64,000 nt of DNA from Candidatus Mesolinea sp. (GTDB lineage Bacteria > Chloroflexota > Anaerolineae > Anaerolineales > Anaerolineaceae): positions 7,617 to 71,616 of the forward strand of contig DAOUFK010000002.1 of assembly GCA_034430095.1 (NCBI GenBank). Reading direction: 5' to 3'. Below, piece by piece: positions 1,079 through 43,535 of the stretch (position 1 is its first letter; each line of letters opens with the position of its first letter). Made by a program: the position numbers and the translations under genes. Below the pieces are notes generated by a model. That model saw nothing but the letters and a program-made list of their open reading frames with translations, had not been told where the DNA came from and did not search any database.

Positions 1079-3847
1079 TCAATTGGATGAGTCCGGGAAA
1101 TTGACATTTTCACTCTTGAGCGCCTTTTCCAGCCATTCCTCGAAAGGCTCAGTGAAGACTGCAAAATTTTCGTAGGTGAGCTTTAGGTTTTTATATAATC
1201 TCTGTAGGTGAAAGTGGTTGGGATTAAGTGTGTATTTTAGGATACGATAGGCTTTGAAAAGAAATTCAAGAGCCTGGGTGAAGTCGCCTTGATCATAATA
1301 AAGTATTCCAATATTGTTATAGATCGCGGCGATATCAGGGTGCTCCAGCCCCAACACTTTTTCTTTAATGGCCAGTGCCTTTTGATAATAGTTCAAAGCC
1401 TGGAAGTAATTGCCTTGAATTTTATAGAGTATTCCAATATTATTATAGCTCGTGGCGGTATTAGGATGTTCGAGACCAAACACTTTTTCACGAATGGCCA
1501 ATGCCTTTTGATAATAGTTCAAAGCCTGGGAGTAATTGCCTTGATCATGATAGAGTGCTCCAATATTGTTATAGCTCTCGGCGGTATCAGGATGTTCGAG
1601 ACCTAACACTTTTTCACGAATGGCCAATGCCTTTTGAGAATAGTTCAAAGCCTGGGGGTAATTGCCTTGATCATGATAGAGTATTCCAATATTGTTATAG
1701 CTCGCGGCGGTATCAGGATGTTCGAAACCTAACACTTTTTCGCGAATGGCCAATGCCTTTTGAGAATAGTTCAAAGCCTGGGAGTAATTGCCTTGATCAT
1801 GATAGAGTGCTCCAATGTTGTTATAGCTCTCGGCGGTGTCAGGATGTTCGAGACCTAACACTTTTTCATGTATGGCCAATGCCTTTTGATAATAGTTCAA
1901 AGCTTGGGGGTAATTGCCTTGATTATGATAGAGTACTCCAATATTAGCATAGCTCGCGGCGGTACCTGGGTGTTCCATACCCAACACTTTTTCGCGAATA
2001 GACAGTGCCTTTTGATAATAGTTCAAAGCCTGGGAGTAATTGCCTTGATCATGATAGAGTATTCCAATATTGGCATAGCTCGCGGCGGTATCAGGATGTT
2101 CCGATCCCAACACTTTTTCGCGAATAGCCAATGCCTTTTGATAATAGTTCATAGCCTGAGGGAAGTCGCCTAAATAAAAATGATGGTTATAAGCGGTTTT
2201 ATTAAGTAATAGTGAGAAGTCAGCACTTTCAGGGATAGGTTGGAAAAATTCAATTAAAGAATCAGCATAATTTATACGTTTACCTTTTTCAGTATATGGC
2301 AAATCTCCAGAAATAAATTCTTTTTGGGTGAAAGAATCAATCAGCCCTTGACAATCCTCAAGGGTAGCTCGAGTTTGCAACCTGATAGACTCTTGCAAAA
2401 GCTGATGCATGGTATAGCCAAGTTCATTTTGCTGAAGCCAACCGCGCTCTACTAGCCAAATGAGGTCGTTTATATCGCAAGGCATCCAACTCTTAATGTG
2501 CACTGGGATGGGCGTGCTGTGCGGCAGCACCGAGAAGACACGCAAAACATGCTGCTTCGCTTCATCCAACCCCGCCATTTCGTAGAGCGCTTTTACGTGC
2601 TCCTGCAGAGTTTGGGCACTCGTCGAGTGTTCTGTTGCCAGCCTCACATGAGAGAACGCAAAACCGTGTTCACGCATCCTTTCCCATACATTATTGAGTT
2701 GTTCCCCTTCGGCTTGCGCACTGCGAGCAAGAAGTTCAACTAAATAGGTGTTCCTTCCTACTGAATTGATGATGGTTTGGGCTGTTTCTCTTTGCTCTCG
2801 ATTGGGATCCAACTTGTAATGCAGGTAAAAGATGTCTGTGCAAGATTCTAATGAGAGAGCATTTAGGAGAAAGACCTCCATGCCCTTTATCTCTGGTAAC
2901 CTGGAAGTGATCAATATCCTAACACTAGGCGAAAAGGCGGCGATAGCTTGCAAGTCTGTATGGTTGGGGATGTCATTGACGTTATCAAGAACGATAAGCA
3001 CATTCTTCTCAGTGGTGTTCAGGAACTCTTTAATTTGAAACAAACGATTTTGCGGGTCGGGGTTTTGCTCCAGTATCCTCAAGGTGAGCAACTGGTTTTC
3101 TAAACTGCCATCATAAGTCAGCCAGGCGAGGTGATCAAACTGGTCTTCTAGGGAATGACAAACTGCTCGGGCGAGTTTTGTTTTACCCAAACCCGCTGAG
3201 CTGCTGATCATCACAATTCTCTGACCGTTCAATAACCTTTGGACAAGCTCATTAGTTTCTTCTTCCCGATGCAAAATGCTTTCGGGTGTAAACAGCTCGA
3301 TGGGCGTGAGATATTTGGGATAATTGACCGGAGCCGCGCTCACATTTTGTAACTCCCTAATTTTGTCCAAAATGAGGTGAGTATTAACGTTAGTATCTAA
3401 GATAAGTAGATTAGAATCTTTTTGAATTCCAGAATTAATGTTGAGAAGAAGCTTTTTAAGGATTTCGTCAGTATTTAATAAAGTCCAGTCTTGATTTTTT
3501 GTGGGTTCAAGCTGATTAAGCGCATCGAGAAAATTTTTGCGGAAAAGGTCATAAGCATTATCCGTTAAATATTCTTGCATATTATCAATGGAAAATATTA
3601 TTTCTTTAAACTTAATGATTTGCTGCTTATTGAAATATGGCTTGAGCGTTTCGTCTAAAGATTTTTGAATAAGCCGATCAAAGCCCTTGATGACGTTTGG
3701 CTTCTTAGTCGTATTAAAGCTCGAAATGATATCTCCGGCTATTCCTGGAAGGATATTAATAAGTCCAGACGGATTTGAAGCAAGATACGCATAAAGACCT
3801 AGCTCAAGTAGTGCTCCAACTATATTTGAATAATCAATGCTCAACAT
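1079..3847 (-). CDS. STAND-class NTPase: unknown N-terminal domain (~190 aa) + NB-ARC-like P-loop ATPase + about 8 TPR (42-aa, TPR_12-type) repeats
   Basis: Walker A is SSSAGLGKTKLA (aa 215-226), Walker B is VLIVLDNV, and an RILITSR motif follows. The C-terminal half is built of units of the form ALNYYQKALAIREKVLGxEHPDTAxSYNNIGxLYxxQGNY. The gene is visibly more AT-rich than its flanks. Confidence 0.85.
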   Translation of the reverse strand: MLSIDYSNIVGALLELGLYAYLASNPSGLINILPGIAGDIISSFNTTKKPNVIKGFDRLIQKSLDETLKPYFNKQQIIKFKEIIFSIDNMQEYLTDNAYDLFRKNFLDALNQLEPTKNQDWTLLNTDEILKKLLLNINSGIQKDSNLLILDTNVNTHLILDKIRELQNVSAAPVNYPKYLTPIELFTPESILHREEETNELVQRLLNGQRIVMISSSAGLGKTKLARAVCHSLEDQFDHLAWLTYDGSLENQLLTLRILEQNPDPQNRLFQIKEFLNTTEKNVLIVLDNVNDIPNHTDLQAIAAFSPSVRILITSRLPEIKGMEVFLLNALSLESCTDIFYLHYKLDPNREQRETAQTIINSVGRNTYLVELLARSAQAEGEQLNNVWERMREHGFAFSHVRLATEHSTSAQTLQEHVKALYEMAGLDEAKQHVLRVFSVLPHSTPIPVHIKSWMPCDINDLIWLVERGWLQQNELGYTMHQLLQESIRLQTRATLEDCQGLIDSFTQKEFISGDLPYTEKGKRINYADSLIEFFQPIPESADFSLLLNKTAYNHHFYLGDFPQAMNYYQKALAIREKVLGSEHPDTAASYANIGILYHDQGNYSQALNYYQKALSIREKVLGMEHPGTAASYANIGVLYHNQGNYPQALNYYQKALAIHEKVLGLEHPDTAESYNNIGALYHDQGNYSQALNYSQKALAIREKVLGFEHPDTAASYNNIGILYHDQGNYPQALNYSQKALAIREKVLGLEHPDTAESYNNIGALYHDQGNYSQALNYYQKALAIREKVFGLEHPNTATSYNNIGILYKIQGNYFQALNYYQKALAIKEKVLGLEHPDIAAIYNNIGILYYDQGDFTQALEFLFKAYRILKYTLNPNHFHLQRLYKNLKLTYENFAVFTEPFEEWLEKALKSENVNFPDSSN
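1244..2176. repeat. tandem 126-bp coding repeats (TPR units) with high nucleotide identity
   Basis: The unit start ggcca(a/g)tgcc recurs at 1370, 1496, 1622, 1748, 1874, 2000 and 2126, an exact 126-nt period. Degenerate units sit at both ends. Confidence 0.85.
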
Positions 3848-9915: not shown

Positions 9916-10857
9916 CTAAACATTTTTTAAGATATTTAAATAAATGCTATTACTATCTAAACCGTGCTTAACGCGCAATTCGTCCGTTGATGCGGATTCA
10001 CCAAATTTATCTTGACTTCCTATACGAAGTAGACGACCTCCAACAGTAGAAACAAGTTCGGCAACCGCTCCACCCAATCCACCATAGATTGAGTGGTTTT
10101 CAATTGTCACAATCAACTTAGATTCCTTGGAAAGTTGTAAAATAAAGTCTTCATCTAAAGGTTTAATAGATCGAATGTTAACAACACTAATACCCATGCC
10201 TTTCTCAGCTAACATACGTGCAGCCTCATAAGCATTGAAAATCATACTCCCGTCTGCAATCAGCACTACATCGCGTCCTTTATCCATCCAGAAATCAGCT
10301 CGGCCAGGAGTAAACTTAACATCTGCAGGATAATATACAGGAACTGGTTGTCTCCCTATACGGATATAGTTTAGCTTGTCATTGCCGATAAGAGTGCGCA
10401 TAGCAGAACTTGTTTCATGAATATCCGATGGGGTATGAACATCAAGCCAGGGGATAACTCGGGCGAGGGCAAGATCCTCAAGCATTTGATGCGTACCTCC
10501 GTCGGGGCCAATGTCAAAACCGGGATGAGTGCCAATAATTGTAAACGGAACATGTGCATAGGCAGCCATTCTAATTTGTGTCCAAGGGAGTCCAATGGAG
10601 AACATAGTAAAACTAACTAAAACAGGATGGTAACCTGCAATGCTAAGACCGGTAGCTACACTCAAAGCGTTTTGTTCTTGTGATCCTAATTGAATAAAAC
10701 GCGAAGGAAATTTTTGCTCAAATGAACTTAAACGGGTGGACCTTCCCAGATCACAATCTAAAACGAGAAGCGTTTTATCTTCATCCGCAATTTGAAGTAA
10801 TGTTTTTCCGATGATATCTCTCGGAGCAATAAGTCTTGTGTCGATCATATAAATCAT
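9916..10857 (-). CDS. transketolase, C-terminal (pyrimidine-binding) subunit
   Basis: 313-aa ORF matching the second half of split transketolases (EQNALSVATGLS, GPDGGTHQMLEDLA). Confidence 0.85.
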   Translation of the reverse strand: MIYMIDTRLIAPRDIIGKTLLQIADEDKTLLVLDCDLGRSTRLSSFEQKFPSRFIQLGSQEQNALSVATGLSIAGYHPVLVSFTMFSIGLPWTQIRMAAYAHVPFTIIGTHPGFDIGPDGGTHQMLEDLALARVIPWLDVHTPSDIHETSSAMRTLIGNDKLNYIRIGRQPVPVYYPADVKFTPGRADFWMDKGRDVVLIADGSMIFNAYEAARMLAEKGMGISVVNIRSIKPLDEDFILQLSKESKLIVTIENHSIYGGLGGAVAELVSTVGGRLLRIGSQDKFGESASTDELRVKHGLDSNSIYLNILKNV

Positions 10858-10861
10858 TCCC

Positions 10862-11683
10862 TTATTCAGATAAGCCTAATTCTTGTAAGGCCTTTTTTAG
10901 CAAATCGTCAGGTAAATCAGCTGAATGCCATTGGGGCACATTTTCCATAAAGCTTACCCCTTTTCCTTTGATGGTATTGCAAGTGAACCAGATAGGTCCA
11001 GATTGGTTAGACTTAAAATTGTTTAAAGAACATAGCATTTCCAAGTAATTGTGTCCATCGATATCTTTAACAGTCCAACCAAAGTTTTCTATCTTCTGAG
11101 AAAGAGGGTAGACGTTCATGATGTCTGTCGCAATTCCCTCTTGTGTCAATTTATTTTCATCTAAAAAAATAATTAAGTTTGACAGTGAAAACTTTGCGGC
11201 TGACTGTATTGCTTCCCAAGTCTGGCCTTCGTTCATGTCTCCATTGCCTAAGATAACATAGACTTTCTTATTTGAGGAGCGCAATCTTTCTGCAAGTGCA
11301 AGACCAACTCCTAGCGACAATCCTTGCCCTAAATGTCCAGTATTTACTTGGACAAAAGGCAACTTATTACGATCAGGATGCCCTTGAAGTCGACTCCCCA
11401 ATTTCCGATAGGTTAGTAATTCATCCTCAGGTAAATAACCCAATTCAACGAGAACACTATAGAAAGCTGGAGCTGCATGACCTTTGCCCAGCACAAACCA
11501 GTCCTTGTTATGGTCGGTGGGGTCGAAATGACCCCACCCAACCAGGACTGTTTGAATCATATCTATTGCGGATAAGGAGCCACCAGGATGACCTGCATGA
11601 GCTGAATTTATCATCCTTAGAATTCTTCCTCTAAGAATAGGGGCCCGTTTTTCTAATGTTTCTGCAAGTTCTGTTAACTCCAT
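10862..11683 (-). CDS. transketolase, N-terminal (TPP-binding) subunit
   Basis: 273-aa ORF with TPP-binding motifs (GHPGGSLS, KGHAAPAFY, GHLGQGLS, GNGDMNEGQTWEA). Confidence 0.85.
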   Translation of the reverse strand: MELTELAETLEKRAPILRGRILRMINSAHAGHPGGSLSAIDMIQTVLVGWGHFDPTDHNKDWFVLGKGHAAPAFYSVLVELGYLPEDELLTYRKLGSRLQGHPDRNKLPFVQVNTGHLGQGLSLGVGLALAERLRSSNKKVYVILGNGDMNEGQTWEAIQSAAKFSLSNLIIFLDENKLTQEGIATDIMNVYPLSQKIENFGWTVKDIDGHNYLEMLCSLNNFKSNQSGPIWFTCNTIKGKGVSFMENVPQWHSADLPDDLLKKALQELGLSE

Positions 11684-11698
11684 TTTATCCTCTATACT

Positions 11699-12967
11699 TT
11701 ATTTTGTAATAAGCTTCAATAAGAAATACAAAGGAATACCGACCGCATTAAAATCTGTCTCCGGAAAAGCTGTACCAGATAATCCCATTTGTTCAAAAAT
11801 AGGATACATAATTGCAGGACCGATAGCAATCATAATTCCAGCGCATAATGCACCAATGATTGCGCCTTTCCATCCTCCGGTAGCATTCCCAAAGACACCT
11901 GCTGTGCCCCCTATGAAAAAGTAAGGAATTGCTACAGGAATAATAACGGGGGCTTTTAAGAGGATTAATACGAACATGGTAAGTAAACCACCAGCATAAG
12001 CAGCTAGAAATCCAATAATGACAGCTGTAGGAGCATACGGAAACACTACCGGGCAATCTAATGCAGGTACCGCATTAGGTATTACTTTTTCGGAGATACC
12101 GATGAATGCAGGCACGATCTCACCAAGGAACATGCGAACACCGGTAATAATTACATATACTGCACCTGCAAATGTTAAAGATTGCAAGAATGGGAAAAGA
12201 AGCCAATTAACTCCAGCAGAAAGCTCCTCAACGGCACCTTTTCCTGCAACTAATGCAGTTATATAAAAGAAAATGAGCATCGTGACAGAGATTGCTGATA
12301 CATAATCGCGGAAAAAAGTTAACCCTTGAGGTAGTTTTATTTTTTCAGTGCTATCCTCAGGGTTCCCAACTTTTGATCCTATCCATGAGGAAAAACTATA
12401 TGCAATTGTGCAATAATGACCGATGCCAATGTCGTCTGAGCCTGTGATTGCGTGCATGCCTTTTTTGCCTAAGAATGGAAAAATAGCTGCACCAATTCCC
12501 AGAATAATAGAACCAACTATTATTGTGATAGTATTCGACACTCCAGCGGCGCCAAAGACAACGGCCAACATCGCTGCAAAAAACAGATTGTGTTGACCTG
12601 TTAGGAAAATATACTTAAATTTAGTCAGGCGGGCAAATATCAAGTTCACAATAAAACCAAATACCATAATCAACGCTGTTGCTACACCGAAATCTTTCAT
12701 TGCTATAGCTGTAATATTTTCAGCTAATGGGGTAACACCAACAAGGTTGAATGCTTTTGAAAATAATGTTTGGAAGTTTCCCAACGCTACAACACCAGCC
12801 CCCGCACCAATGCCAAAAACGAGGAATCCAACCATTGTCTTTATAACACCCGAAGCTATCTCAGGGAACGATTTTTTTTGAATTAGTAAGCCTACTAACG
12901 CTACCAAACCCACCAAGACGGTTGCATTCCCAAGAAAATCTTTAACGAAAGTCAATAAAATATCCAT
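11699..12967 (-). CDS. PTS ascorbate-family transporter subunit IIC (UlaA/SgaT family)
   Basis: Polytopic membrane ORF of the UlaA/SgaT type. I chose the start at ATG 12967, which is preceded by AAGGAG; the ORF-track start at 12991 is a TTG. Confidence 0.85.
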   Translation of the reverse strand: MDILLTFVKDFLGNATVLVGLVALVGLLIQKKSFPEIASGVIKTMVGFLVFGIGAGAGVVALGNFQTLFSKAFNLVGVTPLAENITAIAMKDFGVATALIMVFGFIVNLIFARLTKFKYIFLTGQHNLFFAAMLAVVFGAAGVSNTITIIVGSIILGIGAAIFPFLGKKGMHAITGSDDIGIGHYCTIAYSFSSWIGSKVGNPEDSTEKIKLPQGLTFFRDYVSAISVTMLIFFYITALVAGKGAVEELSAGVNWLLFPFLQSLTFAGAVYVIITGVRMFLGEIVPAFIGISEKVIPNAVPALDCPVVFPYAPTAVIIGFLAAYAGGLLTMFVLILLKAPVIIPVAIPYFFIGGTAGVFGNATGGWKGAIIGALCAGIMIAIGPAIMYPIFEQMGLSGTAFPETDFNAVGIPLYFLLKLITK

Positions 12968-13071
12968 TTTGTTCTCCTTATGTATTAACAAATTATTTTT
13001 TAGAATAAATAAATTCTATATGTGTTCTACATAAATCCTCCTTTCATAGATATCCGCTCAGACAATTTATA

Positions 13072-13371
13072 TCAATTCTGCTTACTATTTAGTTCTTCTA
13101 ACTCTCTCAACAAACCTATTGATATCTCTGAACGACTAACTATATTTTTTATTCCTAAGACTGGTTTTCCTATTGGTTTTAAAATATCTACAAGATCCGC
13201 CATACAAACAAACAGATCAGCGTCGCTTCCTTTAGCAGAGGACACAACATCAGAAGAAATATAGAAGGGTAATCCCCCTTCCTTCACTGCTCGTTCCACT
13301 TGAACTTTTAACATGATGCTACTTCCCATACCCGTTCCACAAACAACTAATAATTTATACTTTTTATCCAT
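13072..13371 (-). CDS. PTS subunit IIB
   Basis: 99-aa ORF with the Cys phosphorylation-site context LLVVCGTGMGSS. Confidence 0.75.
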   Translation of the reverse strand: MDKKYKLLVVCGTGMGSSIMLKVQVERAVKEGGLPFYISSDVVSSAKGSDADLFVCMADLVDILKPIGKPVLGIKNIVSRSEISIGLLRELEELNSKQN

Positions 13372-13383
13372 AGAACTCCTAAT

Positions 13384-14151
13384 TTAACACAATGTGATCT
13401 TCACACCTAAGTTTTCAATTTCATGTAAGATTTCCGCATCTGCGTCTTTTGAAGTAACGATTCGTTCTGCAATTCCAATTGGTGCAACGATGCTTGTTGC
13501 AACATAGCCAATTTTAGTATGGTCTGCTGTAATAATGACACTTTTACTTGTTTTCATGATCATACGGTCCGTTTGCAGCTCTTGAGGAAAATCACTTGTT
13601 AAGCCATATTTAGGATGAACACCGCGCATACCCATTATTACTTTGTCCACATGTAAGTTTTGCAGTATTGTTTCAGAAAAATGACCATAAAATGAGTATT
13701 CATTACGCCGAAGAAATCCGCCAATTGCAATTACTGGCATTTTAGCGTTTGAGGTAAGCTCCTCGATGACAGGTAAAGCATTTGTAACAACTGTAATGTC
13801 GTCTCGATAAATTAATGCTTTAGCAACGTAGGTAGTTGTGGTTCCAGATCCTAAAAAAACCATTTCCCCTGGTCCAATAAGTTTTGCTGTTTCTTTACCT
13901 ATTCTTTGTTTTACATCTGCAAGAGTTTTCATTCGGTTATAAATGTTATTGATATTCTTCAAAGGGAGATTGGAGGTTGCATATGCACCACCATATATTT
14001 TCCGAAGATATCCTTGATTTTCAAGATCATTTAAATCTCGTCGTATCGTCATTGCGGAGACGTGGAATATATCAGCTAGCTCATTGACCTTGACATGCCC
14101 CTCTCGATCAATCTTATCAAGAATGATTGCTAATCGCTCCTCTTTGAACAT
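13384..14151 (-). CDS. DeoR-family transcriptional regulator
   Basis: The N-terminal HTH reads ERLAIILDKIDREGHVKVNELADIFHVSAMTIRRDLNDLE, followed by a DeoR C-terminal sensor domain. The start is ATG 14151. Confidence 0.85.
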   Translation of the reverse strand: MFKEERLAIILDKIDREGHVKVNELADIFHVSAMTIRRDLNDLENQGYLRKIYGGAYATSNLPLKNINNIYNRMKTLADVKQRIGKETAKLIGPGEMVFLGSGTTTTYVAKALIYRDDITVVTNALPVIEELTSNAKMPVIAIGGFLRRNEYSFYGHFSETILQNLHVDKVIMGMRGVHPKYGLTSDFPQELQTDRMIMKTSKSVIITADHTKIGYVATSIVAPIGIAERIVTSKDADAEILHEIENLGVKITLC

Positions 14152-14241
14152 AGCTCTAACATTATATAAATCAAAATGGGATAAGTCAACAAAGACACAC
14201 AACCGAACATATAAAAACAATAAACAATAATATTATTATAA

Positions 14242-39073: not shown

Positions 39074-39101
39074 TTGACTTTTAGATTTTTTATTCTATAA
39101 T
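39074..39101 (+). promoter_or_regulatory. sigma70-type promoter of the first tRNA-fMet copy
   Basis: TTGACT (39074-39079), a 16-nt spacer and TATAAT (39096-39101). The -10 element ends 9 nt upstream of tRNA position 1. Confidence 0.55.
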
Positions 39102-39110
39102 ACTAACCAC

Positions 39111-39182
39111 TGCGGGGTAGAGCAGTGGCAGCTCGTCGGGCTCATAACCCGGAGGTCAGTGGTTCGAATCCACTCCCCGCTA
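39111..39182 (+). tRNA. initiator tRNA-Met (anticodon CAT), copy 1
   Basis: Cloverleaf with anticodon loop CTCATAA. Initiator hallmarks are three consecutive G:C pairs closing the anticodon stem (GGG/CCC), A11:U24, and an unpaired 1:72 position (U.U). CCA is not encoded. Confidence 0.9.
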
Positions 39183-39186
39183 CTAT

Positions 39187-39215
39187 AAACAGAGCCTTGA
39201 AAAGGCTCTGTTTTT
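39187..39215 (+). terminator. rho-independent terminator after tRNA copy 1
   Basis: Stem acagagcc / ggctctgt, a 7-nt loop, then TTTTT. Confidence 0.6.
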
Positions 39216-42200
39216 GACTAGAACGGAAATTTTGCTGAAATACACAATTTCAAATGTCAAATTTCTCTCTAATAATTTGCCGGACTCGTTGGCTATCAAA
39301 CCCATTATTTTCAGTAGTGGTGATTAAATTGTCGGCAAAACCATGTTTTTTATACCAATTTTTCTTATTCTCCCAATGTTCTCTGTATTTTTGATTTGTT
39401 AACATCCCCAAGTGTTCCCAATACCATTGTTCTCCATGAATGTTGATAGTGAAATCTGGCAAATACATTGTTCCATCAGGAGCATATAATGGCACTTCAT
39501 ACAAGAATGGTATGTTTAAATCAGCCAATATATTAGCAATTATCACTTCAGATTTGGACCTCACCATGAGGCTAGTCAATGTTCTATGGATTTTGCCTTC
39601 TTCATACCATTCGTGCATTCTGAAGAGCTCAGCCGGCGAAGGCTTGAATGTAAACAAGGAAGAATTTATTCGATTGAGGATTGACCTTTCTGGCCTGCAT
39701 AAAGAAAGCAGGGGTTGGACATCTTCTTGAATTAATAATGTGCAATGGCTCTGAGCTCGTGTGATTCCTGTGTAGAACAATTCTCGCGATAAGAGAGCCT
39801 GCTTATATTTAGGTAAAACGAAATATACTCGCTGAAACTCACTGCCTTGGGATTTATGAACAGAAATGGCATATGCTAATTCAAGATTCTCAGTAACTGA
39901 TTCTTCGTTTTCATAATTCACCCAATAGTCTGGTTTTCGACTAAAGACTACTTGGAATCTTTCTATTCGGAAATTATTCCATTTCCACTTATCATTTTTA
40001 AGATCAAAACCATGAACTCGAACCATGCCAATTTCGCCATTAAATACTTCGATCCTTTCGTTTTTCCCTGTTTTGTGACAATATGCCATAACAGGGTTTG
40101 ATTTGGGACGGTTTACTATTTGTATCACTTTATCGAAGTAAGTTATTCCCCCTAACTGACCCTTTTTATCAAGTAACCAACCGCCTTTATGACGTTGGAT
40201 AATTCGATTAATGTTCTCCGTGCCATAAAGCTCTCCACGGTAGGGTGAGATAATTTGAAGAGACTCAGGGTAATCACCATCGGCTTTCTTGAATACAGAA
40301 TTCCATAATTCATATGGTTTACCTTGATCAAATTGCTTTCCCGAATCTTCTTCTAAATCTTTCACAATTGTTTTAAGTAAAATGTCTTCGAGCTCACCTG
40401 GCGTATTCCAATAAAGAACTCTCAGATCACCGCTAACATCTCCACCTTCAATTATTTTTGTTAGCATTTGGTCTTTAATTATTTCATCCTCTTCATTTTT
40501 GCCTGTTTGCGAATCACTTCGGAGAAAAATAGAGGCTGAATCTATAATGCCAGTGCCTTTATCTGTTAATCTATTTGTGAGTTGACGCATGTTAATTTTT
40601 AATTCTCCAATGGCTTCTGGTTGTTCAGTCTGAAGCCAGTCCATCAAATCAGCAAAAACCCTGCCAGTCCCGATGGGTGGCAATTGATTAGGATCACCCA
40701 CAAAAATTAAACGTTGAACTGAATTCCAATTGATTGCTCGGAAAAGCGTTGCAAGAAGTGGTAGATCTAGCATTGACGATTCATCGATAATATAAGTTGT
40801 TATAGCCTCTTCTTTTTGTCCGCCAGTTCGTTTAAACGTTAAATTCTCATTCAACCAGCCACGCTTGGCCAAAAATGAATGAATCGTCGCTGCTTGTTCA
40901 TGTGTTCGTTCCCTTAATCGATCAGCTGCTTTCCCCGTTGGCGCTAATAATTGAAAACTAGTGCCTTCTCCATGTGCTTTCTTAATTGCATTAATAATTG
41001 CGCCAACAACTGTAGTTTTTCCAGTGCCAGCACTTCCGCTAAGAATGCTAATTGGGCGCAAGAAGGTTCCTTGGCAAACCTTTATTTGTTGCGCGATAGC
41101 ATCTTCATATTCTTCTGGATGCGATTCAGAGAGCGGGCTTTTAGGGTCAAATAAGAAAAGATGCCAATTGCTGTCTGTCATTGGAAATTTGAGTTTAATA
41201 TTTTGCCTTTGGGCAAGGTCCCTGAGCACACTCTCAATATCACGCTCATCATCGAAAATTTGCTTCAAATACAGATAAAGCTGATTTGATTCATACCTGA
41301 ATTTCAATGCTTTGCTAATTTCATTTTTGTCGATCTCTAGATATCGGAGATTGAAATGAGCTTTTTTCCATTCGGGCAAATAACCGAGTTTGTGATTGAT
41401 GCTTTCTAGAATTGAATCTGCTAACAAAAAAGTGTGTTGATCTTGGTGTCGCAACTGTTCTACACAAAGAGCCCGTAGACGCTGCCAACTTTCAGGTTCT
41501 ACGAGTGTTGCTTTACCTAAATCTGGAGAGGGGAGCATTCCATGATCAATTTGGTTAAACGTTATTTGGTCATCTACATCTAAACCTATATATTGTTCAT
41601 ATAATATATAAGGGTTCTGCGATATTTCTTCTGGAGCCGATAGAATACAAACATTTCCAGGTTGGTCGATAATTCGTGAAATTTGATCAGTGCGCAAATC
41701 AAAACGTGGCAAGGTTTCACTGATTAACATTTGCTGATTAGGTTCTAATAATTGCCATTTCTTTCTGACTGAAGAAATACGCTGAGCTGATATGGTCATA
41801 TCGGGAATCGTACTGATCTCCCCACTCAGGAATGAAAACAGCAAATCTGTAACCTTTTGCTCACCAAGAATGGGGATCTGTTTGGTGGCATACTCTATTC
41901 CTTCAGAGAACTTTAAATAATCTAAAACTCGCAATAAACCAGGATATAAACCACGACTTTGCCAAAGTTCTGCCATAAGTGAACTCAACCAAGTTAACCT
42001 CAATGGCCAATTCTCATGGTTATCACCAATTTCTATAAGAACGCCAACAATTTCAGCCATTTGTTCAATGAGTGCGAGCGCACCATCATCGGTTATGTGC
42101 CGACTAGCATATTTAAATGCACGGGGGTTTTCCGGAACAAAAAGAATACGTTCTAGAACTTTCGGCTGATCCATATATGCATAATATGGGATTCTCAGAC

Positions 42201-43267
42201 CTTCCGTAGGATAGTTTGAAGTGATATTTCGCATCCACACATTTGGTCCGTAGCGTCGCTCCATTTCTTCAGATTGATCCGTCCAGGTAATTTCTTCACC
42301 AATAGATTTGATACGAGACATACCTATGATTACGTATTTTTGCTGCTCGTTCTCGCTGAACGGATTACTGTAATTTGCATAATAGAAAATTAAGCTCTTC
42401 GAAGGCGTGATTTTTGAGAAATATTCATTAACAGCTGTCCTCCGTTTTATTGGGTCATATTTCGGATATTTCGTTTCAGTATTAAGCACTTCTTCTTTAT
42501 ATACTTCTTCATAGGGCCATGTGCAGATGGTGTAGGGCGGTATAGTCCATGTGCGAGGGCTTGTATTATCTGTGAACCATTTTGGAGGCGGCATTTGTGC
42601 TGGTATTGGAAACGGGCTAAAAGCATTGACGCTGGCTAGACAAGGGATATAAAAATTGCTCAGTTCATTAACAGGCTTACCTGCAATTGGCTCCTCTAAC
42701 TGCAAATTGCGCCTTTCAGCAATTAAATCACCAGGAAAAGAAAAAAGCCCAGTGCAATAGGTGTTTTCCTTAGGATTACGGCAAACACAACCGTTCCATC
42801 CATAATCATGCCAAGCCATCCTTGCCGAAATGTGAATGGTCATATTTCCTCCAAATCTTTGCTTCTCGTATCATTAGTTAGGATGCTGTTCTAGACATTG
42901 ACCCTATTACAAAATTTCTACTTTTTTAGTAATTGAAATATATCACTAAATTGTTATTAAATATCTATATTATTTCGCAGTATTACTGCCTTATCAATAT
43001 TAATGATTAATCGAGATAACGGAATTACATGGAAGATAAACCCTAGCATTAATAAATTATGCCACCTTGTTACCAAAAGCGGAATGATTGAGGGCGGATA
43101 AAATTTCTAAGATATTTAGTTTTAGAAGTATCCATTTTCTACTTTTTACTGCCAATTGTTAATCAATTATAGCATAGACGTACTCACAACAACTTTTTAA
43201 GGATCTGTAATAAATCCTACTGATTACAATACTTTAAAAACCTGATCAATGGTTTGCTGTTTAAGGG
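39196..43267. mobile_element. AT-rich 4.07-kb insert between two identical tRNA-fMet genes (integrase-less genomic islet)
   Basis: It is bounded by perfect 88-bp direct repeats (39108-39195 and 43268-43355). The composition is visibly AT-rich compared with the flanks. The content is one gene plus a 424-bp leader. Confidence 0.55.
39250..42843 (-). CDS. 1197-aa multidomain protein: unknown N-terminal region (~590 aa) + RecD-like SF1 helicase core + C-terminal PD-(D/E)xK-like nuclease module
   Basis: The start is preceded by a GGAGG SD. Helicase motifs are Walker A SGSAGTGKTT (aa 602-611), Walker B YIIDESSM (684-691), GDPNQLPPIG (716-725), AISVHKSQGSEF (992-1003) and FYTGITRAQ (1023-1031). The C-terminal tail reads SKSEVIIANILxxLxIPFxYE...PDF...EHLG (aa 1096-1146). 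Confidence 0.85.
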   Translation of the reverse strand: MTIHISARMAWHDYGWNGCVCRNPKENTYCTGLFSFPGDLIAERRNLQLEEPIAGKPVNELSNFYIPCLASVNAFSPFPIPAQMPPPKWFTDNTSPRTWTIPPYTICTWPYEEVYKEEVLNTETKYPKYDPIKRRTAVNEYFSKITPSKSLIFYYANYSNPFSENEQQKYVIIGMSRIKSIGEEITWTDQSEEMERRYGPNVWMRNITSNYPTEGLRIPYYAYMDQPKVLERILFVPENPRAFKYASRHITDDGALALIEQMAEIVGVLIEIGDNHENWPLRLTWLSSLMAELWQSRGLYPGLLRVLDYLKFSEGIEYATKQIPILGEQKVTDLLFSFLSGEISTIPDMTISAQRISSVRKKWQLLEPNQQMLISETLPRFDLRTDQISRIIDQPGNVCILSAPEEISQNPYILYEQYIGLDVDDQITFNQIDHGMLPSPDLGKATLVEPESWQRLRALCVEQLRHQDQHTFLLADSILESINHKLGYLPEWKKAHFNLRYLEIDKNEISKALKFRYESNQLYLYLKQIFDDERDIESVLRDLAQRQNIKLKFPMTDSNWHLFLFDPKSPLSESHPEEYEDAIAQQIKVCQGTFLRPISILSGSAGTGKTTVVGAIINAIKKAHGEGTSFQLLAPTGKAADRLRERTHEQAATIHSFLAKRGWLNENLTFKRTGGQKEEAITTYIIDESSMLDLPLLATLFRAINWNSVQRLIFVGDPNQLPPIGTGRVFADLMDWLQTEQPEAIGELKINMRQLTNRLTDKGTGIIDSASIFLRSDSQTGKNEEDEIIKDQMLTKIIEGGDVSGDLRVLYWNTPGELEDILLKTIVKDLEEDSGKQFDQGKPYELWNSVFKKADGDYPESLQIISPYRGELYGTENINRIIQRHKGGWLLDKKGQLGGITYFDKVIQIVNRPKSNPVMAYCHKTGKNERIEVFNGEIGMVRVHGFDLKNDKWKWNNFRIERFQVVFSRKPDYWVNYENEESVTENLELAYAISVHKSQGSEFQRVYFVLPKYKQALLSRELFYTGITRAQSHCTLLIQEDVQPLLSLCRPERSILNRINSSLFTFKPSPAELFRMHEWYEEGKIHRTLTSLMVRSKSEVIIANILADLNIPFLYEVPLYAPDGTMYLPDFTINIHGEQWYWEHLGMLTNQKYREHWENKKNWYKKHGFADNLITTTENNGFDSQRVRQIIREKFDI

Positions 43268-43270
43268 CAC

Positions 43271-43342
43271 TGCGGGGTAGAGCAGTGGCAGCTCGTCGGG
43301 CTCATAACCCGGAGGTCAGTGGTTCGAATCCACTCCCCGCTA
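43271..43342 (+). tRNA. initiator tRNA-Met (anticodon CAT), copy 2
   Basis: This copy is identical over all 72 nt to copy 1. No consensus promoter is visible in the AT-rich sequence upstream. Confidence 0.9.
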
Positions 43343-43350
43343 CTATAAAC

Positions 43351-43375
43351 AGAGCTTGAAAAAGCTCTTTTTTTG
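43351..43375 (+). terminator. rho-independent terminator after tRNA copy 2
   Basis: Stem agagctt / aagctct, a 4-nt loop, then a T7 run. It is a diverged version of the copy-1 terminator. Confidence 0.5.
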
Positions 43376-43535
43376 ATTTCAGCGCCAATTAACAGGCTGG
43401 CGGCGGAAAGCAAGTTAAAAATAGCCCTGTTAATATTAGTGATCCACATTATAATATACGTAAAATAATCTCTTGGTAAATTGTTTCCTTAATGAAATTA
43501 TTTACAAAACACCCTCTCCTATTATGGTTTAAAGG

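Follow-up and report, generated by a model that had tools for sequence, protein, structure and literature searches.

We describe here a single-gene helicase-nuclease encoded within a 64,000-nucleotide stretch of DNA from Candidatus Mesolinea sp. (contig DAOUFK010000002.1, positions 7,617 to 71,616), which we refer to in its full length as the window. The gene lies at 39250..42843 on the minus strand, an uninterrupted frame of 1197 codons plus stop, and its product joins three modules in one chain: an N-terminal domain peculiar to its family, a RecD-type motor, and a PD-(D/E)xK nuclease. By its profile match the protein is a full-length member of the PDC-S68 family, and the gene was acquired horizontally at a tRNA gene. 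We consider it probable that this is a defence helicase-nuclease of some kind, and we propose tentatively, with confidence somewhat short of even, that it is a self-contained, horizontally acquired anti-phage or anti-plasmid effector that acts by direct restriction. Helicase-nuclease defence proteins are themselves a familiar theme, and the most original part of this one is its N-terminal domain.

Family membership and module architecture

A first-pass annotation of the sequence had proposed both that 39250-42843 encodes one giant polypeptide and that it is a candidate for an undescribed single-gene defence system. The frame is indeed intact, but the family is already listed in PADLOC-DB v2, where model PDLC05066 (PDC-S68) matches residues 1-1193 with profile positions 1-1199 of 1202 (E=0, 1696 bits) and the sister models of the PDLC05064-05066 set reach 765 and 646 bits. 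The family belongs to a set of 145 single- or multi-gene 'phage defence candidates' (PDCs), drawn from genes lying within systems of the BREX, DISARM and Type I restriction-modification (RM) kinds, all of which the authors call untested (Payne et al. 2024, doi 10.1101/2024.01.29.577857). Our literature search found no mention of the PDC-S68 label, including in those supplements of that paper that were examined, and no account of this architecture among reports of RecD-type single-gene defence or PUA-helicase fusions; the family is catalogued as a hidden Markov model and a label, without a published domain description, mechanism or phenotype. A protein database search returned 705 relatives at E<=1e-5, mostly of 1190-1200 residues, and public assemblies contain an identical or near-identical copy of the 1197-residue protein, so that this is a real, conserved gene.

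The relatives are patchily distributed across Proteobacteria, Firmicutes, Acidobacteria, Spirochaetes, Nitrospirota and one archaeon, and they occur on 25 plasmid records, 23 of which are typed as non-mobilizable; among 5,426 complete E. coli genomes, nothing matched the locus by megablast. Several relatives have an extra C-terminal domain, HEPN_Swt1 in P0226 and Schlafen AlbA_2 in P0199, P0058, P0051, P0059 and P0071, and both fusions are typical of conflict systems. We also note a divergent subfamily (P0191 and about 15 others) with an extra N-terminal extension of ~90-100 residues without a Pfam match, and that the N-terminal extension of P0226 holds a CxxC...CxxC zinc-ribbon-like motif. 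The Nitrospirota homologue (L013 9983-13733) is split into three open reading frames (ORFs) of 574, 201 and 492 residues, and is probably a decaying pseudogene.

The motor, residues 585-1045 (39709..41091, minus strand), carries the complete superfamily 1B (SF1B)/RecD motif set, and every motif quoted in the first-pass annotation is found where it was placed: GSAGTGKTT at 603-611 (Walker A, with K609), YIIDESSM at 683-690 (motif II, with D687/E688), VGDPNQLPPIG at 715-725 (motif III), and SVHKSQGSEF at 994-1003 and FYTGITRAQ at 1023-1031 (motifs V and VI). Conservation was counted over 181 full-length relatives for the helicase and nuclease residues and over 209 sequences for the N-terminal domain; K609 is kept in all 181, and D687/E688 in 179-180. 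Pfam AAA_19 (4.8e-31), AAA_30 (1.2e-29) and UvrD_C_2 (2.9e-14) match above cut-off over residues 585-735 and 989-1036. The best named relatives by sequence are the NCBIfam families RecD2 (TIGR01448; E=2.8e-79) and RecD (TIGR01447; E=2.8e-57), although both scores fall below the family cut-offs (267.1 bits against an equivalog cut-off of 500, and 194.6 against 310.15), and the best solved relatives in the PDB are E. coli RecD (1w36_D, 4.9e-24) and D. radiodurans RecD2 (1.6e-17). The SH3-like insert that had been reported is recognizable as a weak 2B insert at about residues 904-942, and some relatives have a precomputed match to PF18335, although the Pfam SH3_13 match in this protein is sub-threshold (E=4.3e-4, 20.4 bits against a cut-off of 41).

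The 589 residues ahead of the motor had been described as an extra region matching nothing recognizable, which is correct for residues 1 to ~345 but not for the remainder. The RecD2 profile TIGR01448 begins to align at residue 350, its first ~118 positions being unmatched and the better of its two matched stretches covering profile positions 119-462 of 713; a PADLOC model described as a RecD/Tra ATPase fused to an N-terminal HHH domain aligns from residue 488; and PF14490 (HHH_RecD2) is the top match at about residues 379-470 in 8 of 10 diverse family members, each match being individually weak. Read from these profile matches, residues ~350-590 are RecD2's own HHH/accessory region, which we place, with the linker that follows it, at residues 350-584 (41092..41796, minus strand), and the extra N-terminal region shrinks to about 345 residues.

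The nuclease domain, residues 1085-1197 (39253..39591, minus strand), is assigned by predicted structure and conservation. Sequence searches with the C-terminus gave no Pfam match, and the profile of this domain matched PDB sequences only at chance level (E>=0.27). An AlphaFold model of residues 1045-1197, built with 30 relatives, has a predicted local distance difference test score (pLDDT) of 79.8 overall and of 86-96 in a core at about residues 1095-1185, and its top 25 Foldseek matches are all PD-(D/E)xK proteins (probability up to 1.0, E ~2e-3), including DrdV, Bax1, the R2 restriction-like endonuclease, AF1548, Hjc, TnsA and PvuRts1I. These matches, and the conservation of the residues numbered in the first pass, bear out the restriction-endonuclease fold, with its alpha-beta-beta-beta-alpha-beta core, that had been suggested for the C-terminus: E1099 is kept in 179 relatives, E1116 in 172, D1130 in 179, and E1143 and H1144 in 180 each. 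K1097 and K1160 are likewise near-invariant, and the pair P1129-D1130, like E1099 and E1143, is conserved at 99%. Judged by these counts, the ATPase site is intact, the nuclease site appears to be so, and both are under strong purifying selection.

The N-terminal domain, residues 1-349 (41797..42843, minus strand), is without a database match. Its Cys/Trp-rich opening, already remarked upon, is real and near-invariant: W11, W16, C21, N27 and G174 are present in all 209 sequences, H12, C68 and Y155 in 208, C30 in 207 and H4 in 203, and N160 and W203, in the alpha/beta core, are also listed as invariant. The presence of three Cys and one His among these residues suggests a putative structural zinc site. 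The predicted structure (pLDDT 86.8, predicted template modelling score 0.81) has an alpha/beta core from residue 1 to ~250 followed by a helical bundle at residues ~252-340, and the conserved surface is basic, aromatic and Asn-rich. Pfam searches at E<=10 with 34 members gave nothing consistent and no EVE, ASCH or SRA match, and NCBIfam gave no match; the domain profile matched PDB sequences at chance level alone (E>=0.27), the best PDB fold match by Foldseek had E=0.15, and the BFVD viral structures yielded incoherent matches with nothing below E=0.05. The Pfam, NCBIfam, PDB-sequence and PDB-fold comparisons likewise contain no relaxase, primase or replication domain.

The profile of this domain found 1,193 clusters at 50% identity, to be read as at least 1,193, among 1.84 billion representatives, and in the best 150 of the 1193 matches it always lies at or near the N-terminus of a protein of ~1150-1450 residues. 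The shorter and mid-length matches are collinear truncations at contig ends, and we therefore dropped the idea that the domain occurs in other architectures; its constant placement in the best 150, together with the collinear fragments, identifies it as a family-specific module. In a phage collection, distant relatives of the domain (21-24% identity, E=5e-12 and 8e-5) are encoded by MT837260.1 and MT839248.1, short unannotated 'Bacteriophage sp.' contigs from human faeces whose viral nature is putative.

There is a hint that the core of the domain is EVE/PUA-like. The top PDB fold match, which is not significant, is the EVE-HNH enzyme VcaM4I (PDB 6yex), and by eye a likeness to EVE is seen at residues 134-180: its helix and its 'FFYHS' and 'GIAG' strands align with residues 136-180 ('TAVNEYFSKI..SLIFYYANYSNP..YVIIGMSRIKS'). 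Profiles were built from EVE sequences taken from the PDB and from the protein database, and compared by hhalign with the N-domain alignment. P was 0.071 when 4 EVE sequences were used and 0.019 when 124 were, and the 124-sequence profile scored 18.0 with P=0.074 when rerun with -M 50. The best alignment falls exactly in the register predicted beforehand, the reversed EVE alignment scores far lower, and one of 150 column-shuffled profiles reached the higher score.

The tRNA-Met islet and the neighbourhoods of relatives

The gene is the sole credible one in a low-GC islet of ~4.06 kb (39205..43267) with ~38% GC (0.29-0.46 in 200-nt windows); the gene itself has 31-45% GC against 50-58% in the flanks, and lies ~12-15 points below the host DNA. 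The islet is bracketed by a 97-nt direct repeat (39108-39204 and 43268-43364) whose copies are 97% identical, each with a complete and identical tRNA-Met(CAT). The left copy (39108..39204, plus strand), which contains the native tRNA at 39111-39183 and 21 nt of 3' flank, is a putative attL, and the right copy (43268..43364, plus strand), with the second tRNA at 43271-43343, a putative attR. The low GC relative to the flanks and the bracketing repeat agree with the foreign islet proposed in the first pass, and the islet contains no integrase, no other mobile-element gene and no methyltransferase. The closest related metagenome contig, L091, shares the left flank and the tRNA at 97% identity and is without the helicase-nuclease gene. 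It carries at the same tRNA another cargo of 2.3 kb (a thiolase-like gene and a 132-residue ORF), at whose end 44 nt of the tRNA 3' end are repeated (the repeat positions being L091 920-998 and 3288-3331), and it rejoins the window 4.3 kb further on, without the window segment 43344-47635 and its two flavin adenine dinucleotide (FAD) oxidoreductase genes. This tRNA-Met, at which L091 has a different cargo, is therefore a hot spot for integration, and the helicase-nuclease gene has arrived there recently by horizontal transfer. We also note that in the P0001 cluster the identical protein accounts for 46 member sequences whose sole recorded contig is 4,117 nt long, which is about the length of the islet and suggests that assemblies break at the duplicated tRNA.

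Ten other distinct loci encoding relatives were examined, as well as 12 further genome loci, the latter spanning at least eight phyla and including one archaeon. Classical defence genes are present at eight of the ten: an Eco57I/MmeI-type methyltransferase fusion, SNF2 and PDDEXK_3 at P0005; an integrase, BrxC/BrxD ATPases, a DEAD helicase and Type I RM at P0075; Type I RM and SIR2 at P0090; GmrSD_N, AAA_15-DUF3696, PglZ, SNF2 and a DNA methylase at P0030; PLD-SNF2, Mrr_N, SNF2 and NERD-UvrD at P0004; Type III RM 19 nt upstream, and an integrase, at P0007; Type I RM on a 23-kb Bartonella plasmid; and Type ISP RM 19 nt upstream on a 24-kb Paracoccus plasmid. At P0106 an adjoining AAA_15/AAA_21 ATPase is a candidate defence gene only, and at the tenth, P0012, all neighbours are metabolic. 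Neighbours at the 12 further loci include Type I and Type III RM, MADS, PARIS AriA, PbeA, AbiEii and a Type IV enzyme, along with ordinary genes. Of the contexts from which the PDCs were derived, Type I RM is adjacent at P0075, P0090 and on the Bartonella plasmid, and PglZ- or BREX-like genes are present at P0005 and P0030; no such system adjoins the gene in the window. These neighbourhoods fit the conflict-system role that had been suggested for the protein. Each of the two plasmids encodes a RepA and a ParA of its own, with MobQ in addition on that of Paracoccus, and the protein is therefore plasmid cargo and not plasmid machinery.

In four distant genomes the homologue directly adjoins a giant protein of 1,557-1,739 residues (L006 7793-13009, L010 13821-18596, L008 13716-18386 and L016 5076-9950). 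By homology the giants fall into two pairs, L006/L010 and L008/L016, and Pfam matches in L006 and L008 are to an N-terminal Sacsin-like region and an SF1 or SF2 helicase. Such a giant may represent a recurrent partner or an additional defence gene; the giants are absent from the window and from close relatives, and we have dropped them as a conserved partner.

Proposed function and its rivals

The architecture suggests a plausible model for direct restriction. The N-terminal domain, with its putative Cys3-His zinc site, aromatic and Asn-rich surface and possible EVE/PUA-like core, would select the substrate by some feature of the incoming foreign nucleic acid, of which a base that is non-canonical or modified, or else a DNA structure, is the most likely, and a role for it as the sensor is plausible. 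The RecD2-type motor and the HHH DNA-binding region would then drive ATP-dependent 5'->3' translocation along one strand, and the C-terminal nuclease would cut the tracked DNA, presumably DNA rather than RNA being the target, with direct destruction of foreign DNA as the outcome. The polarity is assigned by analogy with the RecD2 motor, which translocates 5'->3' on single-stranded DNA. Strong purifying selection on all three modules argues that all three matter. A more specific form of the model makes the first 345 residues a hitherto unrecognized domain, zinc-bearing and distantly PUA/EVE-like, that reads bases which are modified or damaged; the family would then found a RecD-motor-driven Type IV-like class. 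We regard this form as unlikely.

The logic of this model is that of the SauUSI-type ATP-dependent Type IV restriction enzymes, which combine a PLD nuclease, an SF2 helicase and a DUF3427 modified-cytosine reader in a single chain. Here too a nuclease, an NTP-dependent motor and a putative specificity domain are united without a methyltransferase partner. The domains follow one another in the reverse order, however, with an SF1B motor in place of SF2 and a PD-(D/E)xK nuclease in place of PLD, and the putative reader is unrelated in sequence. Nhi/AbiO and Hna are likewise single-gene defence proteins that unite a helicase and a nuclease, and both active sites are needed in Nhi and Hna. However, Nhi has an N-terminal nuclease and an Upf1-like SF1 motor and is without the N-terminal domain described here; the PADLOC matches to Nhi (E=2.6e-4) and AbiO (E=7.6e-5) are weak and extend over residues 498-720 only rather than the full length, and Hna is absent from the 25 best PADLOC matches. 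VcaM4I and TspA15I are EVE-HNH modification-dependent endonucleases (Lutz et al. 2019, PMC6765204); VcaM4I has no motor, and the N-terminal domain here is twice the size of an EVE domain, has a ~70-residue Cys-rich insertion and is followed by a helical bundle. The PADLOC model typeIV_RecD (RecD_0_IVD) scores 191 bits, with the better of two stretches at residues 505-794 and not over the full length. Its descriptor reads as a CRISPR type IV-D helicase, and we rejected it as a pointer to Type IV restriction; the islet holds a single gene, and no association with cas genes was found.

Several observations weigh against this direct-restriction model. Where (D/E)xK has its canonical Lys, two positions past E1143, this protein has Leu (E1143-H-L), and the catalytic geometry of the nuclease is uncertain for this reason, although K1097 (Lys in 160 of the 181 relatives and otherwise Arg), K1160 (Lys or Arg) or H1144 may substitute. 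Zinc binding is read from residue conservation. The EVE/PUA link is weak, the VcaM4I match (Foldseek E=0.15) having a TM score of 0.2 and a root-mean-square deviation of 16.8 A, and the HH probability of the EVE match being 0.8-2.5%. The choice of trigger is a guess, because base modifications are not what helicase-nuclease defence proteins such as Nhi, Gabija and Hachiman sense; these respond to proteins or to DNA structures. The neighbours in the window are purely metabolic, as they are at P0012, and the defence context comes from other loci. Finally, our literature search found no protection phenotype reported for any PDC-S68 member.

The main rival is an indirectly triggered, abortive defence, which we think rather unlikely, although the data do not separate it from direct restriction. 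The N-terminal domain would here restrain the enzyme until it senses either a protein of the phage, an SSB or RecBCD inhibitor for instance, or an intermediate of replication such as free ends or forks, as proposed for Nhi, Gabija and Hachiman, and degradation would then be indiscriminate. Consistent with this, the domain has no significant match to any nucleic-acid reader, the HEPN_Swt1 RNase and AlbA_2 domains of some relatives are typical of abortive or toxic effectors, and there are helicase-level PADLOC matches to Nhi/AbiO and GajB. The absence of a partner immunity or methylase gene from the islet also fits, and implies that self-protection is by autoinhibition or by target specificity. 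However, the matches to Nhi, AbiO and GajB are weak (best full-sequence E of 1.6e-5 to 2.6e-4), and what they cover, for Nhi/AbiO altogether and for GajB in most of its stretches, is the generic ATPase and its N-terminal linker. Moreover, the conserved basic and aromatic surface of the domain and the weak EVE-like signal fit nucleic-acid reading equally well or better.

An alternative to defence by either route is that the protein serves a mobile element, as a RecD/TraA-type helicase-nuclease for replication, transfer, integration or the elimination of competing plasmids. The tRNA-flanked islet, the occurrence on 25 plasmid records, the integrases adjoining at P0075 and P0007, and helicase-level similarity to TraA/TraI (NCBIfam; PDB 5n8o and 9f0x) are compatible with such a role. 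We nonetheless consider it quite improbable, as the protein is without a relaxase, primase or Rep domain, including the N-terminal HUH/MobA relaxase of the conjugative relaxase-helicases TraA_Ti and TraI, and the TraA/TraI matches score 15-57 bits against cut-offs of 590-2486 and are confined to the ATPase (residues 593-738). There is also no other element gene in the islet, 23 of the 25 plasmids are non-mobilizable, and the two small plasmids examined have their own replication and partition genes, in one case also MobQ, with the gene adjoining RM rather than transfer genes on both.

The last alternative is a housekeeping one, in which a single-chain analogue of AddAB/RecBCD or Dna2 processes host DNA ends, and the protein does resemble these enzymes in coupling an SF1 translocase to a PD-(D/E)xK nuclease. 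The Dna2 nuclease, however, is N-terminal and has an Fe-S cluster, AddAB and RecBCD consist of several subunits and are inherited vertically, and no RecB or RecC partners are found near the gene, whose neighbours in the window are a methyltransferase, a tRNA and FAD oxidoreductases. Like RecD2 (D. radiodurans, PDB 3e1s; TIGR01448), the protein described here has the HHH/accessory region, both helicase domains (1A and 2A), the SH3-like 2B insert and all of the SF1B motifs, but it has its own 345-residue domain ahead of these and a 110-residue PD-(D/E)xK nuclease added C-terminally. Although the SF1B motor and nuclease reproduce the parts of Dna2 in the opposite order, the best named relatives by sequence are RecD and RecD2, and some loci (the window and P0012) have only metabolic neighbours, a repair role is highly improbable given the scores below the equivalog cut-offs (267 against 500 for RecD2, 195 against 310 for RecD), the patchy and plasmid-borne distribution, a GC content ~12-15 points below that of the host DNA, the absence of the gene from the closest related contig, the Nitrospirota copy broken into three ORFs and the defence genes adjoining most loci examined.

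Other features of the window and significance

The expression signals of the gene include a Shine-Dalgarno sequence, GGAGG, 4 nt 5' of the ATG (42848..42852, minus strand), and a sigma-70-like site, TTGATA-17-AATAAT, assigned by consensus match alone (10/12), ~125 nt 5' of the ATG (42969..42997, minus strand). Just 5' of the left repeat is a near-consensus promoter-like sequence, TTGACT-16-TATAAT (39074-39101, plus strand). Between the left tRNA and the stop codon of the large gene lies a hairpin with a perfect 12-bp palindrome (AAACAGAGCCTT/AAGGCTCTGTTT; 39187..39213) followed by a T-run on the plus strand. It is likely to be the terminator of the left tRNA. It may also terminate the minus-strand gene, although the tail on that strand is only TTTATAG and the site was not listed by the signal scan. 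A sequence scan places a terminator-like hairpin of the right tRNA copy at 43351-43368. The 62-residue ORF at 43261-43449 overlaps the second tRNA copy and was rejected as spurious.

Outside the repeats the genes are metabolic, and include a mevalonate-pathway thiolase, an HMG-CoA synthase-like gene and an HMG-CoA reductase, as well as a thioredoxin-reductase-like flavoprotein, a small-molecule-type methyltransferase and FAD oxidoreductases. The adjacent Methyltransf_11 gene is outside the repeat-bounded islet and does not belong to a DNA-methylase family. Elsewhere in the window, a low-GC stretch (0.41-0.43) at 1079-3847 (minus strand) encodes a 922-residue STAND NTPase with NB-ARC and many TPR repeats, whose N-terminal ~190 residues are without assignment, and which could be an Avs-like immune sensor or a regulator. 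A segment at 9916-14220 (minus strand; GC 0.38-0.43) encodes a split transketolase (N and C subunits), a PTS EIIC-GAT permease and a DeoR regulator, and looks like an acquired sugar-utilisation cassette.

The family had already been flagged as a candidate, and the coupling of helicase and nuclease in defence is familiar, which limits the novelty of the finding. The analysis would nonetheless turn a PADLOC candidate into a mechanistic hypothesis with named residues for mutation, and the tRNA-Met duplication offers a delivery route for a lone defence gene that has no integrase of its own. If active, PDC-S68 would be a compact, one-gene, motor-driven nuclease system spread across many phyla, plasmids and one archaeon. 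Identification of the ligand of the N-terminal domain would define a new recognition domain for prokaryotic immunity, and a domain that reads modified bases could be a tool for detecting DNA modifications. Should it prove to be a reader of modified or damaged bases, the family, which numbers at least 1,193 clusters when grouped at 50% identity and extends over bacteria, plasmids and at least one archaeon, would constitute a new restriction class of single-chain, modification-dependent helicase-nucleases.

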